Shown here: positions 38,872 to 44,700 of the stretch, piece after piece
How the letters are laid out: each line of letters begins with the position of its first letter
Position numbering within the stretch: position 1 is the first letter of the stretch
Source of the DNA: an uncultured Deefgea sp.
Lineage (GTDB): Bacteria > Pseudomonadota > Gammaproteobacteria > Burkholderiales > Chitinibacteraceae
Assembly: GCF_947072475.1 (NCBI RefSeq)
Contig: NZ_CAMTIA010000013.1
Coordinates: 4,553 to 68,552 of the forward strand
Direction: 5' to 3'
DNA length: 64,000 nt
Made by a program: the position numbers and the translations under genes
Notes under the pieces: generated by a model
Database searches by the model: none
What the model saw: only the letters and a program-made list of their open reading frames with translations
What the model was told of the DNA's origin: nothing

Positions 38872-39441
38872 TTAAATTGTTTGTTCGCCACTGGCCTCTT
38901 GCGCTAGTCGCTGGCGGCGTTCCAGTTGTTTGGCGTCGTAAGCCGATTTGTGCGCGATATACAATACGCGGTCGACTTCGGCGCAGACGTCGCCCTTGGC
39001 GTTCACCATTTCCACGGCATAGGTGCGGGTGATTTCTGGGGTGATGGCGAGTAATTGATGGATTTCAGTCAGTTCTGCTGCATCCAGTCGAAATTCGGCC
39101 GTCAGCGTGCTAAGCGCTGGGCGTTTAAAGCGGATGGTGCCGCCTTTATCCCAAACCACATACTCTTCGCCCAAATTAAAATACAGCATGCTCATATAAA
39201 AAGGGTCGGTGGCGGCAAACATACTGCCGCCAAACAGGCTGCCATTGAGGTTGCGCGTTTTCCAGTTGAGCGGCAATTTGACGGTGATTTGTCGAACATC
39301 AGCGCTGATTTGGCTGACTTTGCAACCGGTGCGGCGGATCGCAGGGTAGTAGTTAAAACCGATTTTTAAGAGCGCAGCCGCAAGGCGCGGCCGAGCAAGG
39401 ATGGCAAAGGCGAGTTTTTTTACTAGGGGCGACATAGTCAT
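38872..39441 (-). CDS. DUF4442 / hotdog-fold thioesterase-like protein
   Basis: FNYYPAIRRTG, LPLNWKTRN..GSLFGGSMFAATDPFYM, VVWDK.G.IRFKRP. Confidence 0.85.
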   Translation of the reverse strand: MTMSPLVKKLAFAILARPRLAAALLKIGFNYYPAIRRTGCKVSQISADVRQITVKLPLNWKTRNLNGSLFGGSMFAATDPFYMSMLYFNLGEEYVVWDKGGTIRFKRPALSTLTAEFRLDAAELTEIHQLLAITPEITRTYAVEMVNAKGDVCAEVDRVLYIAHKSAYDAKQLERRQRLAQEASGEQTI

Positions 39442-39500: not shown

Positions 39501-39844
39501 TTAAAACGCATAATCACGCTCAACTTTGGCGATGCGGGTTTTGTACTGGCCATACCACTGAGCGCGTCCTGATTTTTGTGCCAGTTGATGCTCGCTATGG
39601 GCTTTCCAGTTTTGGATTGACGCTAAATCAGCCCAGTACGACACCGTGATGCCAATGGCAGCTCGGGCAGACTCAACCCCTAAAAACCCCGGTTGGTCTT
39701 GTGCTAAGGCCAGCATTTTTTCAGCCATTTCAGCGTAGCCTTGCTCATCCTCAGTACGTATTGAAGTGAAAATCACTGCGTAGTAAGGTGGTTTTGGCGT
39801 ATTGGCGTATTGGCGTAGCTGGGGTGCTGGTTTTCAGTTGTCAT
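39501..39844 (-). pseudogene. Antibiotic-biosynthesis-monooxygenase (ABM) family gene, frameshifted by an extra 8-bp repeat unit
   Basis: Downstream frame reads YANTPKPPYYAVIFTS..GY..MA..M..LA..QPGFLGVESAR..IGITVSYW. ATG 39844 is 68 nt from the GTG at 39776; removing one TACGCCAA copy (three at 39794-39817) restores one ORF. Confidence 0.8.
39794..39817. repeat. (TTGGCGTA)x3 tandem repeat
   Basis: Three exact copies read directly from the sequence. Confidence 0.95.
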
Positions 39845-39932
39845 GGTGCCGTTATTGCCTTGAAGTGTTAATCAGGGAAATCGTCAGTGATACGTCATAT
39901 TCAGAACGTGATGTGCCACTGACGATGCAAGT

Positions 39933-41765
39933 TTAATCGGCTTCTTCGCCTAAAAACCCACCGCTTTGATGTGACCACAGCCGCGCATACAGGCCACCTT
40001 GTTCTAGCAAGCTTTGATGGTCGCCTTGCTCAACAATTCGCCCTTGGTCGAGTACGATCAAGCGATCCATCGCCGCAATGGTGGATAAGCGATGGGCAAT
40101 CGCCACCACGGTTTTACCTTCCATTAGGCGGTATAAGCTGGTTTGAATCGCCGCCTCAACTTCAGAGTCGAGCGCGCTGGTGGCTTCGTCGAGCAATAAA
40201 ATCGGCGCGTCTTTGAGCATTACGCGGGCAATCGCAATCCTTTGGCGTTGTCCGCCCGAGAGTTTGACGCCGCGCTCGCCCACATGCGCGTCGTAGCCGG
40301 TGCGCCCGGCAGGATCGCTTAAGTTCAGAATAAATTCATGCGCTTCGGCGCGTTTGGCGGCGGCAATCATTTCCTCATCCGTGGCATTGGGGCGGCCGTA
40401 TAAGATGTTTTCGCGCACCGAGCGATGTAACAGCGACGTGTCTTGCGTCACCATGCCAATGTGCGCGCGTAAGCTGTCTTGCGCTACCTTGGCGATGTTT
40501 TGGCCGTCAATCGTAATGTGCCCAGACTGAAGGTCGTAAAAGCGCAGTAATAGGTTCACAATCGTCGATTTGCCTGCGCCGGAGCGACCGACTAAGCCGA
40601 TTTTTTCGCCAGCGCGAATTTGTAGCGACAGCTGCTTGAGTAGTAAGCGATCTGCTTCGTAGCCAAAATCAACGTGGGCAAATTGGATTTCGCCGCGTGA
40701 TACAGTCAGTTGCGTAGCGTCGGGTTCGTCATTGACTTCGTGCGGCGTGGTCAAGGTGTTGATGCCGTCTTGTACGGTGCCAATATGCTCAAATAGTGCG
40801 GCGATTTCCCACATAATCCATTGCGACATGCCGTTTAAACGCAGCGCCATCGCCAATGAGGCCGCCACCGCGCCTGCGCTTACCTGACCATGGCTCCATA
40901 AATACAAAGCAGTACCGGCGCTAGCGATAATCAAGCACACGCTTAAGGTGTGATTGACCACCTCAAAACAACTGACTAAACGCATTTGGCCATGCACGGT
41001 GTGCATAAATTCTTGCATCGCGCTGCGGGCAAATGCTGCTTCGCGGCGACCGTGCGAAAACAGCTTCACCGTGGCAATATTGGTATAGGCATCGGTAATG
41101 CGGCCGGTCATCAGTGAGCGAGCGTCAGCTTGGTTTTGCGCTGCCTTACCCAGACGCGGAACAAAATAAAACATCGCGCCAATATACAGCAACATCCACG
41201 ACAGCAGCGGCACTAATAACCACAGATCAAAGCTGCCAGCGACAGCCAGCATGGTGAAAAAATAAATCGCCACAAACACCATGATGTCAGTGACGATAAA
41301 CACCGTTTCACGCACCGCTAACGCGGTTTGCATGACTTTGGCCGAAACGCGCCCAGCAAATTCATCCTGATAAAAACGCATGCTTTGACTGAGCATTTGC
41401 CGGTGAAAGTTCCAGCGCAGCAACATCGGGAAATTGCCGGCTAAGGCTTGATGTTTTAGTAAAGTTTGCAGGCCAACCACCAGCGGGCTGAGTAATAACA
41501 CGCCCGCAATCAGGCTCAGTCGAAACTGCTCTTGCGCCCAGAGTTGACTCGGTTCGACATGGGCCAGCCAGTCAACAATATGCCCGAGCAAGCTATACAA
41601 AATCGCTTCAAAAGAACCAATGATGGCGGTGCAGAGCATCATGCTAAAAATCAGTGGGCGTAGCCCTTTTGTACAGCGCCATATAAATGATTTGAAATCA
41701 TGGGGTAAGGTTTTGTTTTGCTGTTCTGGGTAGGGGTGAACTATATTTTCAAAAAGTCGAAACAC
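39933..41765 (-). CDS. ABC exporter, fused TMD-NBD (multidrug/MsbA-like)
   Basis: Six-TM domain, GLVGRSGAGKST, VTQD, LSGGQRQRIAIAR, LLLDEATSALD, IAHRLST. Confidence 0.95.
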   Translation of the reverse strand: MFRLFENIVHPYPEQQNKTLPHDFKSFIWRCTKGLRPLIFSMMLCTAIIGSFEAILYSLLGHIVDWLAHVEPSQLWAQEQFRLSLIAGVLLLSPLVVGLQTLLKHQALAGNFPMLLRWNFHRQMLSQSMRFYQDEFAGRVSAKVMQTALAVRETVFIVTDIMVFVAIYFFTMLAVAGSFDLWLLVPLLSWMLLYIGAMFYFVPRLGKAAQNQADARSLMTGRITDAYTNIATVKLFSHGRREAAFARSAMQEFMHTVHGQMRLVSCFEVVNHTLSVCLIIASAGTALYLWSHGQVSAGAVAASLAMALRLNGMSQWIMWEIAALFEHIGTVQDGINTLTTPHEVNDEPDATQLTVSRGEIQFAHVDFGYEADRLLLKQLSLQIRAGEKIGLVGRSGAGKSTIVNLLLRFYDLQSGHITIDGQNIAKVAQDSLRAHIGMVTQDTSLLHRSVRENILYGRPNATDEEMIAAAKRAEAHEFILNLSDPAGRTGYDAHVGERGVKLSGGQRQRIAIARVMLKDAPILLLDEATSALDSEVEAAIQTSLYRLMEGKTVVAIAHRLSTIAAMDRLIVLDQGRIVEQGDHQSLLEQGGLYARLWSHQSGGFLGEEAD

Positions 41766-41931: not shown

Positions 41932-44583
41932 GTGAGGGTGTGCCAGATGGATAGAAATGATTTACTCATTGCGACGCGCTCGGTGTTTTTGGCTCAATTT
42001 AATCAAAGAGTGCCGATGGTGCTGGCCCATTCGATTGGGCAATTATTTAATCAGGCCGATCGAGCCAGTTCAATGCTGGAGCAGCGGCGTTTGTTGGCGG
42101 CACGGCAATTGATTATGAGTCATGACCAATTGCTTGAGCAGCAATTATCACGTCAGGTTGAGCAATTATTGCATCGCAGCTTTCAAACGGCGTATAGCCA
42201 TTTTCGACCGTCGTTTACCGAGGGACTCAATGCCACTTTGTCTTTGGTGGAGTCGGCGTCGTTTGAAGAAGAATTACATATTGATCAAATTACCCTGCGT
42301 TTTCGGCAAGAGGCCGAAGAAGCCATTCGCGATTTAAATATTCGAATTGCTTTGTTGCTAGAGCAAGACGTGATTAAAGAGCGAGAAAATCCATTTCGCA
42401 CCTATATTATTTCGCGCAGTTTTGCCAGTGCTTTAGAAGAAACGGTGGCCGAAACGGGGAGCGACAATGAATTAATCCCCGTGCTGTTGGCGCAACTCAC
42501 CACGTCAATGTGCCCGCACGTCGCGCCGCTGTATGCGGCTTTAAATCAACTGCTGGCCCAGCATGGGATTGCAGCGCAATTGCAATTAAAGGTCAGAAAG
42601 CAAAGTGAGCCAGCGGCAATCGCTGCGGGCAATTCGCTGGATCTGCCCGATGCATCACCCTCGGCATTCACCCCCGAAGCGCAACACAGCGCACCCGCAT
42701 CGGGAGGCCGTGAGCCGCAGCGTGTAGCGGCACCCAGTCGTTCATCGGCGGCTTCATCAGCAACTTCACCAGCAGCTTCATCAGCAGGTTCGGTAGGCGC
42801 AGCGCCTTGGAGCGCACGCTCAGAAGATCAATTTTTGGATTTTGTGCAATCTAGACCGTCTGCTTCGCAGGCTTTATCGCCAGGTGCTGCGCCAGCGAGT
42901 GCGCCCAATGAGATGGCGGGTATGGGCTATGGCGGCTATGGCGGCTCTGACTCGATGGACTTGGCGGCAGCGCCGGCGTCCAGTGCCGAGGCCCGTGCCA
43001 GCATAGTGCGGGCACCTTCATGGCTGAGTCATATTGGCCAAGTCGGTCGAAGCATTCAGCAGTTTTTTAGTGGCCACAGCCTGCAGCAAGGCGCGCAGGG
43101 GCAAAGCCCGGTGTGGGATGACGCTGCATCGCTGGAACTACGTTCGGTGAGTGCGCCGCTGAGCCAATCACTGCAAAGTTTGATTGCCGTCGCCACGCCA
43201 ACGGCCGACGCCATGTGGCGTGGCGACGGCCAATTGCGTAATTTGATTTTAGAGCAGCGGCAACAATTGGGTGCTAGCACCAGCGACGTCAATGAGGCGA
43301 TGACCATTGATGTGGTTGCCATGCTGTTTGAATTTATTTTGCGTGACGATAAAGTACCGGCCGAAGTTCGGGCGCAGCTTGGGCGTTTGCAGTTTTTGGT
43401 ATTAAAAATTGCGCTGCAAGATCCAAATCTTTTTGCCAGAAAAACCCATCCAGCGCGCATGCTGGTCAACCGTATTGGTTCGATTTCTCTGGGTATGCAG
43501 CAAAATAGCGAAAGCGCCTCCCGAGTCAATACCGAGATTTGCCGCATTGTGGCGATTATTTTGGCCGATGAAAGTGAAGATTTGGCCTTGTTTGTACACA
43601 TGCTCGATGCGCTGGATGCATGGGTGGCCAATGAATTAGCCCATTGCGAAAAAATGGCCAGTAGCGCCACGCAAGTTTTAGATTCTGCCAAACAGCGCAC
43701 ATTACATTTTGCGCGAATTACCGCGATGATTTCCGACGCTTTATCGCCCTATACCATCGAGCCGTATTTATATGATTTTTTGGTGAGCACTTGGGCGCGG
43801 GTGATTGAATTGGCCGGGCGCGAAGCGCCGCATAAAGCCATACAGTATCGCTTATTGGTGCCCGATTTGATTTGGAGCTTAGCGCCTAAAGTCGATCGCG
43901 ATGAATGCAAGATTTTATTGGGTTTGATCCCAACCATGATTACTACCTTGCGCGAAGGGGTGTTAACGCTTAATTGGACTGCCGAGCAATTGCAAGAATT
44001 AAACCTGCATTTGGTGGATGCGCATCGTTTGGCGATGCGTTCAGGTGCCAGTCAAGTGCTGAGCGCCGTGCCGCCACCGCTATCGGTGATGCATGAGGCT
44101 TTTGCGCCATTTTTGGACGCGGTGCATACCACTGAGGCCACAGAGAATGAGGTGGTGCTGGCGTTAAATCCGCTGTTTATTCAGGCCGAAATCGATGCTT
44201 TAGAAATCAATCTCAATTTAATTGATCAATTGATTGAGTCGGAATTAGGGCCGCCAACCGCAGTGGACATCGATAGCGAAGACGAGGATTTTACGGCGTG
44301 TTTAAGTAATGGCGTGGCGGTGGAGATTAATTTTGATGGCAGCGCGCGTATTGCGCAATTGAGCTGGCAAGCCAATCATCCCGATGCGATTGTGTTGACT
44401 TGGCCCGACCAAGACGCGCCGGCAGTATTGAGCTTGCGGGCGTTTCGCCGTTTGTTTGCCCGTGATCGCGTGCGCTTTTTAGAGCAAGCGCCTTTATTTG
44501 ATCGGGCAATGAACGAATTATTGGCCTCGGCCGAGCAAGTGGCCAGCGCCGAAACTGCATTGCCGAGCATGGCGATGGCCTAA
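41932..44583 (+). CDS. DUF1631-family protein
   Basis: TIDVVAMLFEFILRDDKVPAEVRAQLGRLQFLVLKIALQD..LF....HPARMLVNRIGS; LVPDLIWS; low-complexity central linker. True start may be ATG 41947. Confidence 0.85.
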   Translation: MRVCQMDRNDLLIATRSVFLAQFNQRVPMVLAHSIGQLFNQADRASSMLEQRRLLAARQLIMSHDQLLEQQLSRQVEQLLHRSFQTAYSHFRPSFTEGLNATLSLVESASFEEELHIDQITLRFRQEAEEAIRDLNIRIALLLEQDVIKERENPFRTYIISRSFASALEETVAETGSDNELIPVLLAQLTTSMCPHVAPLYAALNQLLAQHGIAAQLQLKVRKQSEPAAIAAGNSLDLPDASPSAFTPEAQHSAPASGGREPQRVAAPSRSSAASSATSPAASSAGSVGAAPWSARSEDQFLDFVQSRPSASQALSPGAAPASAPNEMAGMGYGGYGGSDSMDLAAAPASSAEARASIVRAPSWLSHIGQVGRSIQQFFSGHSLQQGAQGQSPVWDDAASLELRSVSAPLSQSLQSLIAVATPTADAMWRGDGQLRNLILEQRQQLGASTSDVNEAMTIDVVAMLFEFILRDDKVPAEVRAQLGRLQFLVLKIALQDPNLFARKTHPARMLVNRIGSISLGMQQNSESASRVNTEICRIVAIILADESEDLALFVHMLDALDAWVANELAHCEKMASSATQVLDSAKQRTLHFARITAMISDALSPYTIEPYLYDFLVSTWARVIELAGREAPHKAIQYRLLVPDLIWSLAPKVDRDECKILLGLIPTMITTLREGVLTLNWTAEQLQELNLHLVDAHRLAMRSGASQVLSAVPPPLSVMHEAFAPFLDAVHTTEATENEVVLALNPLFIQAEIDALEINLNLIDQLIESELGPPTAVDIDSEDEDFTACLSNGVAVEINFDGSARIAQLSWQANHPDAIVLTWPDQDAPAVLSLRAFRRLFARDRVRFLEQAPLFDRAMNELLASAEQVASAETALPSMAMA

Positions 44584-44613
44584 CCAAGCCCAAGCCCAAG
44601 CCCAAGCCCAAGC
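44584..44613. repeat. (CCAAGC)x5 microsatellite
   Basis: Five exact copies directly after the DUF1631 stop codon. Confidence 0.95.
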
Positions 44614-44675
44614 ATGGGTTGGACAATAGTCTAAAACAGCGTCTCGCTGGTGCTGGTCTTGATTTGGGCGCAGCG

Positions 44676-44700
44676 TGCCGTGCCGTGCCGTGCCGTGCCG
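44676..44700. repeat. (TGCCG)x5 microsatellite
   Basis: Five exact copies about 95 nt upstream of recC. Confidence 0.95.

Follow-up and report, generated by a model that had tools for sequence, protein, structure and literature searches.

Why does a gene belonging to a very large and strongly conserved protein family carry, near its very beginning, an 8-bp unit in three perfect copies that puts its reading frame out of register? The gene encodes an ABM protein of the YqjZ type and lies on the minus strand of the stretch of DNA analysed here, which we call the window (64,000 nucleotides, C13:4553-68552). This stretch comes from the genome of a freshwater Deefgea bacterium (Neisseriales), which comprises 3.45 Mb in 108 contigs. 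The first-pass annotation of the locus had left three answers side by side, namely a reversible ON/OFF switch, a recent inactivation and an assembly artefact. We conclude that this is probably a very recent, strain-specific loss-of-function frameshift, and thus an ordinary pseudogene rather than a purpose-built switch. The features on which the argument is built are collected in Table 1.

Table 1. The broken ABM gene and its surroundings, with positions counted along the window.
Feature	Position	Strand	Evidence
Whole ABM (YqjZ-like) gene, frameshifted, probably a fresh pseudogene	39501..39844	(-)	tblastn: two frames split at the repeat; PDB 2GO8 E 6.3e-36
Truncated 23-codon frame, MTTENQHPSYANTPIRQNHLTTQ + stop	39773..39844	(-)	authentic ATG start; first 14 residues as in orthologues
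Rest of the ABM/YqjZ-type CDS in the other frame, 91-aa ORF from GTG 39776	39501..39776	(-)	PF03992, 27.6 bits
Perfect tandem array (TACGCCAA)x3, third unit read as a +8 bp frameshifting duplication	39794..39817	(-)	TRF; two units in relatives and metagenome contigs
DUF4442 (hotdog-like) gene, intact	38872..39441	(-)	PF14539, E 6.4e-15; 60 nt downstream of ABM
ABC transporter gene, fused permease + ATPase, upstream of ABM	39933..41765	(-)	Pfam ABC_tran + ABC_membrane
Hairpin between ABC stop and ABM start	39880..39926	(-)	arms ATCGTCAGTG / CACTGACGAT invariant in five Deefgea species

The frame that opens with the ATG at 39844-39842 encodes only 23 amino acids and ends with a TGA at 39775-39773. 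Its codons on the minus strand are ATG(39844) ACA ACT GAA AAC CAG CAC CCC AGC TAC GCC AAT ACG, followed by CCA ATA CGC CAA AAC CAC CTT ACT ACG CAG TGA. The TACGCCAA array at 39817-39794, to which TRF assigns a period of 8, 3.0 copies and 100% matches, makes up codons 10-17, and it is because this array adds 8 bp that the frame of ATG 39844 meets its stop after 23 codons. The second, downstream frame is closed on its 5' side by a TGA (39836-39834), finds its first start at GTG 39776 and ends with a TAA (39503-39501); this GTG and the stop of the short frame overlap as GTGA. A complete ABM domain is thus not contained in one open frame, as tblastn places residues 1-14 and residues 10-111 in different frames. 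Removal of a single TACGCCAA unit restores the frame and yields a product of 111 aa, which matches the Pfam ABM profile from its position 1 with 30.3 bits (cut-off 23.1), whereas the match of the 91-aa piece begins only at position 7 and scores 27.6 bits against the same cut-off. The anatomy of the two frames had been described in the first-pass annotation (the 23 residues and stop, the three units at 39794-39817, a complete ABM protein with two of them, and a downstream frame with a stop at 39834-39836 and no start before GTG 39776), and every base of that description was confirmed.

The protein belongs to the YqjZ-like subgroup of the ABM/IsdG family (PF03992) and exceeds the Pfam gathering score both as the 111-aa product and as the 91-aa piece. 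Once one unit is removed, the product matches PDB 2GO8 (B. subtilis YqjZ) with an E value of 6.3e-36 over residues 11-110. Both consist of a single ferredoxin-like domain of about 105 aa with an N-terminal TPxPPYYAVIF motif, but the window copy is frameshifted. Family members, which are about 105 aa long, provide thousands of matches at approximately 70% identity. YqjZ-like proteins are ABM members of unknown function and are described as non-haem, dimeric alpha+beta barrels with type-2 barrel packing; the order of strands in their sheet is beta2-beta3-beta1-beta4, so that beta1 is central (PMC4835899). In the AlphaFold model of a full-length homologue with 94% identity (P0001, mean pLDDT 70.9), beta1 comprises residues 18-25, and the whole fold (E18-25, H34-47, E51-57, E62-68, helices, E99-105) is ferredoxin-like. 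Residues A11, T13, P14, P17, Y18, Y19, A20, V21, F23 and T24 are invariant in an alignment of 20 family sequences. The TACGCCAA units encode a near-invariant A-N-T-P motif, to which the first three of these residues belong. As the repeat thus encodes invariant residues, only the two-unit state can be ON and give a normal protein.

We then asked how many units are present elsewhere. The Deefgea genomes compared were those of a sister Deefgea species (G001), D. salmonis H3-26 (G002), D. piscis (G003), Deefgea sp. CFH1-16 (G005), D. rivuli (G008) and D. chitinilytica (G009). An alignment of DNA from five Deefgea species revealed that G001, G002, G003 and G005 each have two units, the first of them imperfect (TATGCCAA TACGCCAA). 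These four genomes read AGC TAT GCC AA(T/C) ACG CCA AAA CC, with TAT rather than TAC (the tract can also be written TATGCCAA(T/C)ACGCCAA), and the window is longer than these genomes by exactly 8 bases at this site. In D. rivuli (GCC AAC ACC CCC AAA) and D. chitinilytica (GCC AAC ACG CCA CCA) the A-N-T-P motif is likewise encoded, but by codons that do not form an 8-bp repeat. The repeat thus results from the choice of codons for a conserved motif and is not maintained as a tract.

Metagenomes point in the same direction. We used Logan contigs of seven runs, derived from lake water (X1-X4 and X20), biofilm (X5) and faeces (X8); the candidate runs were related lake, biofilm and faeces metagenomes, and their best word share with this genome was 0.59-0.69. 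Every contig crossing the repeat in the seven runs lacked 8 bases at 39794. One of these, X4 record 29 (159 nt), otherwise agrees with the window at every base, and a perfect two-unit allele with TAC therefore exists in the same species; X5 record 2 has two further differences. What looked like undeleted depth in run X3 turned out to be soft-clipped two-unit TAT contigs, with the loose end ATAGCTGGGGTGC at 39806. Alleles of 1, 3, 4 or 5 units did not occur among the contigs of the seven runs, a form of evidence from which rare variants are dropped, and pattern scans of JGI metagenome contigs for alleles of 2 to 5 units returned no matches. An exact-protein look-up in sister assemblies, made with the DUF4442 protein, found nothing on record. 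Three units are thus seen in this assembly only, and two units are the ancestral and population state in the genomes and contigs compared.

Apart from the extra unit, the gene bears no mark of decay. Calculated by the Nei-Gojobori method, with one unit removed from the window gene for this purpose only, dN/dS was 0.064 against D. salmonis and 0.071 against D. piscis, and the two intact genes of these species gave 0.063 when compared with each other. As the values equal that of the intact pair, the gene must have been under strong purifying selection until very recently, and the frameshift is accordingly very recent. The proposal of a recent inactivation is therefore well supported, both by the two units found elsewhere and by dN/dS values of 0.06-0.07 without decay. 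Nevertheless, recency alone cannot separate a switch from an accident, because a switch freshly turned OFF would show no decay either.

The gene is not indispensable in this genus. Of 10 Deefgea species, 3 lack it, and in Iodobacter and two Deefgea MAGs it is not adjacent to the DUF4442 gene. Judged from these genomes, the ABM gene is expendable in Deefgea. In the sister species G001 a 263-bp MITE-like element (L005:1775-2037; G001:C1:2263228-2263490) interrupts the gene after codon 53. The element is bounded by terminal inverted repeats of 13 bp (GGGTCTGTTGACG ... CGTCAACAGACCC) and has duplicated its TA target, and invariant residues of this gene copy have since been replaced (V65E and R101C). 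Five Deefgea genomes have 43-60 matches each to the family of this element, and a sixth (G007) has 6. BLAST against the window's own genome yielded 40 HSPs, of which 8 are nearly full-length; the window's contig contains none. In Deefgea sp. CFH1-16 (L003), an A-run of 4 reads as 6 (GTACAAAAAACCC) about 36 nt before the ABM stop, and this +2 change shifts the last 12 codons, resulting in an annotated product of 122 aa. Since that assembly is based on PacBio RS II only and is 91% complete, the change may be a sequencing error and not a third lesion.

How could the third unit have arisen? In this Deefgea lineage the codons for the conserved N-terminal Y-A-N-T-P-K motif by coincidence amount to two 8-bp units side by side. 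The first step was probably a synonymous TAT>TAC change, which made the 2 x 8 bp repeat perfect, whereupon a single event of replication slippage (or of unequal exchange) may have added the third TACGCCAA unit. The additional 8 bp put the frame out of register beyond codon 14, so that translation begun at the authentic ATG stops after 23 codons, and the remaining 91 codons would be reached at most through inefficient termination-reinitiation at the overlapping GTGA. We infer both slippage as the mechanism and the reality of the extra unit in the DNA of this strain. By chance, a genome of 3.45 Mb should contain about 8e-4 perfect 3 x 8 bp arrays (4^-16 x genome length), and as the one observed lies so far above this expectation, the third unit should be regarded as a true duplication. 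On the other hand, two-unit arrays of this size are not unusual, as the genome contains 117 of them and about 53 would be expected by chance. Slippage is plausible in this organism because its genome holds longer arrays of 7-8 bp units elsewhere, which are intergenic and reach 8 copies. Loss of one TACGCCAA unit would restore the gene exactly, and for this reason we consider the site a revertible mutational hotspot and not an evolved contingency locus.

Two other sources of the change were considered and rejected. The footprint of an excised IS or MITE could in principle leave extra bases, but the element in G001 duplicates TA and not 8 bp, excision in bacteria rarely leaves a footprint, and slippage is a more economical explanation. 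A mutator background was the other candidate. However, inspection of the MutL and MutS frames gave no sign of a loss of mismatch repair, as MutL is intact and the MutS frame merely runs off the end of contig C60.

The extra unit might not exist in the organism at all. If it were an artefact of assembly, sequencing or library preparation, the strain would really have two units and an intact gene, and this would agree with the finding that three units occur in this one assembly and two in four congeneric relatives. However, the site is located in the middle of a contig (C13:44346-44369 of 77,134 bp), the 24-bp array is shorter than the k-mers and reads normally used in assembly, and short-read errors do not typically take the form of an 8-bp tandem duplication. 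The assembly is also otherwise clean (100% complete, 0.62% contaminated), and we therefore find such an artefact unlikely. If the unit is real, it could still be harmless, provided that termination-reinitiation at the GTGA gave a working protein of 91 aa or that a programmed -1 frameshift rescued the frame. The overlap of GTG 39776 with the TGA is indeed a geometry known to allow translational coupling, and the 91-aa ORF is called a protein in public annotation. However, its product would start at residue 21, within the modelled beta1, and would thus drop the first strand, as had been claimed in the first-pass annotation; the ANTPxPPYY motif and, with it, the invariant residues up to ANTPxPPYYAV and the first half of the central beta1 are missing. 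There is no purine-rich (Shine-Dalgarno-like) ribosome-binding site in the sequence before GTG 39776. Programmed frameshifting was rejected, since CGC CAA AAC is not a slippery heptamer of the X XXY YYZ type and the relatives are all colinear, so that none of them needs or uses recoding. Deprived of its invariant motif and of one half of beta1, any 91-aa product is very probably inactive, a judgement drawn from the alignment and the model; the three-unit allele would then be a null, and we regard a gene that still functions with three units as barely credible.

A further reading is that of a switch, which would turn the ABM gene ON at two units and OFF at three at a frequency that brings a selective benefit, with the sequenced clone caught in the OFF state. 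In its favour, the unit is not a multiple of three, the tract lies early in the ORF, removal of one unit restores the frame, and the gene has no other damage. Moreover, X4 record 29 shows a perfect two-unit repeat in this species, other arrays of 7-8 bp units with up to 8 copies are found in the genome, and mismatch repair recognises loops of 8 nt poorly. Simple-sequence contingency loci of Neisseria and Haemophilus, such as the opa CTCTT and lic CAAT tracts, likewise have a frame-setting tandem repeat near the 5' end of an ORF, and Deefgea is itself a member of Neisseriales. However, known contingency tracts are usually much longer than 3 units, and the tract described here is also not preserved as a repeat, being imperfect in four congeners and absent in two. 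Its copy number does not vary among strains or populations, as the four congeners and every metagenome contig of the seven runs have exactly two units. Instead of occupying a region of the protein that tolerates change, it encodes the invariant A11, T13 and P14, so that even five units, which would be in frame, would damage the protein and only one ON state is left. The product is cytoplasmic and of unknown function, and the gene is not one of those for surface structures, restriction-modification or host interaction; furthermore, other lineages have lost it irreversibly, by MITE insertion or outright absence. An evolved slipped-strand contingency switch is for these reasons very unlikely, and the suggestion of a reversible ON/OFF gene is not supported by a short, unconserved tract in an invariant motif for which no copy number other than two was seen elsewhere. 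Reversible copy-number change in tandem repeats is also treated in PMC12817950. One might also imagine that the perfect 2 x 8 bp repeat created by TAT>TAC is a nascent, low-copy ON/OFF toggle of the YqjZ-type gene, and perhaps, through Rho-dependent polarity, of the DUF4442 thioesterase-like gene as well. This would amount to the birth of a contingency locus within a motif that the protein family conserves; given the evidence against it, we consider it a long shot.

An accidental slippage knockout, which we prefer, has a closer counterpart in the (CTGG)x3 site of E. coli lacI. This site, reportedly described by Farabaugh and co-workers in 1978, is an example of a low-copy tandem-repeat indel hotspot. 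There, too, a short unit that is not a multiple of three occurs in 2-3 copies in an ordinary gene, and gain or loss of one unit by slippage results in an exactly revertible frameshift null. The difference is that the unit in the window is 8 bp and not 4 bp long, and that the ancestral state here is two units. The locus illustrates with textbook clarity how a two-unit repeat of incidental origin can turn into an indel hotspot once a synonymous substitution has made it perfect. The strain would also be a natural knockout, which could help to assign a function to the widespread and uncharacterised YqjZ family.

Beyond its annotation, the consequence for the locus is small. Public records list the locus (39501-39776, minus strand) as two ordinary proteins, one of 91 aa with a GTG start and one of 75 aa with an ATG start; each is recorded from this contig alone, and the frameshift is apparently unflagged there. 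It would be better to flag the locus as a frameshifted pseudogene than to list it as an ABM protein of either length.

The neighbouring DUF4442 gene is intact, and its product is 97% identical to that of D. salmonis over residues 1-189. A simple scan found no promoter- or terminator-like site between the ABM and DUF4442 genes and no sigma-70-like promoter between 38700 and 40100. The hairpin on the other side of the ABM gene has 10-bp arms and a 26-nt variable loop, with a predicted energy of -22 kcal/mol and a z of -2.67. It is not followed by a typical terminator T-run and has no match in Rfam; a riboswitch or leader upstream of the ABM gene was rejected on the latter ground.

Is the ABM gene one of many genes broken in this manner? 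A genome-wide screen for repeat-broken genes listed 41 arrays with units of 4-11 bp that are not multiples of 3 and at least 3 copies. Apart from ABM, 4 of them gain a longer spanning frame upon removal of one unit. None of the 41 arrays revealed another recognisable gene broken by an extra unit: on inspection, those at C7:31282 and C16:58438 are situated upstream of genes, and there is no convincing gene at C29:9083 or C47:20390. As two hits are upstream of genes and two lack a recognisable gene, a genome-wide pattern of repeat-broken genes was rejected. The array at C7:31282-31306, a perfect 3 x 8 bp CGGATAAA, ends 12 nt 5' of the ATG of a 373-aa frame. The other, also a perfect 3 x 8 bp array (AAATCATT, C16:58438-58462), precedes a 265-aa frame with a PEP-CTERM-like tail at its end, and some 150 nt separate the array from the first ATG of that frame. 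Their positions suggest that these two arrays affect leader or promoter spacing rather than causing coding frameshifts.

The genome also contains longer arrays whose unit length is not a multiple of 3, namely (CGGCAAC)x8, (CGTATTC)x8, (AAAACAGA)x6 and (CCGCTCAA)x5, at C2:116434-116489, C86:9032-9089, C82:6533-6583 and C35:8096-8137. The window itself contains (CCAAGC)x5 and (CGTGC)x5.4 at 44584-44613 and 44674-44700, directly 3' of the stop of an 883-aa ORF (41932-44583). Such longer arrays are better candidates for slippage-dependent variation than the ABM repeat. Another octamer, CTCTGCGT, is repeated in tandem 2-5 times at each of 17 sites that are scattered over the genome and for the most part intergenic, for example at C19:30161-30200 (five copies), C16:3716-3739, C29:9083-9106 and C2:5256-5470 (four arrays). 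Most of these arrays are found in the recurring context ttctcYgYgc-(CTCTGCGT)n-caaaaggttttt, and they look like a REP-like dispersed element in which the number of octamers is variable.
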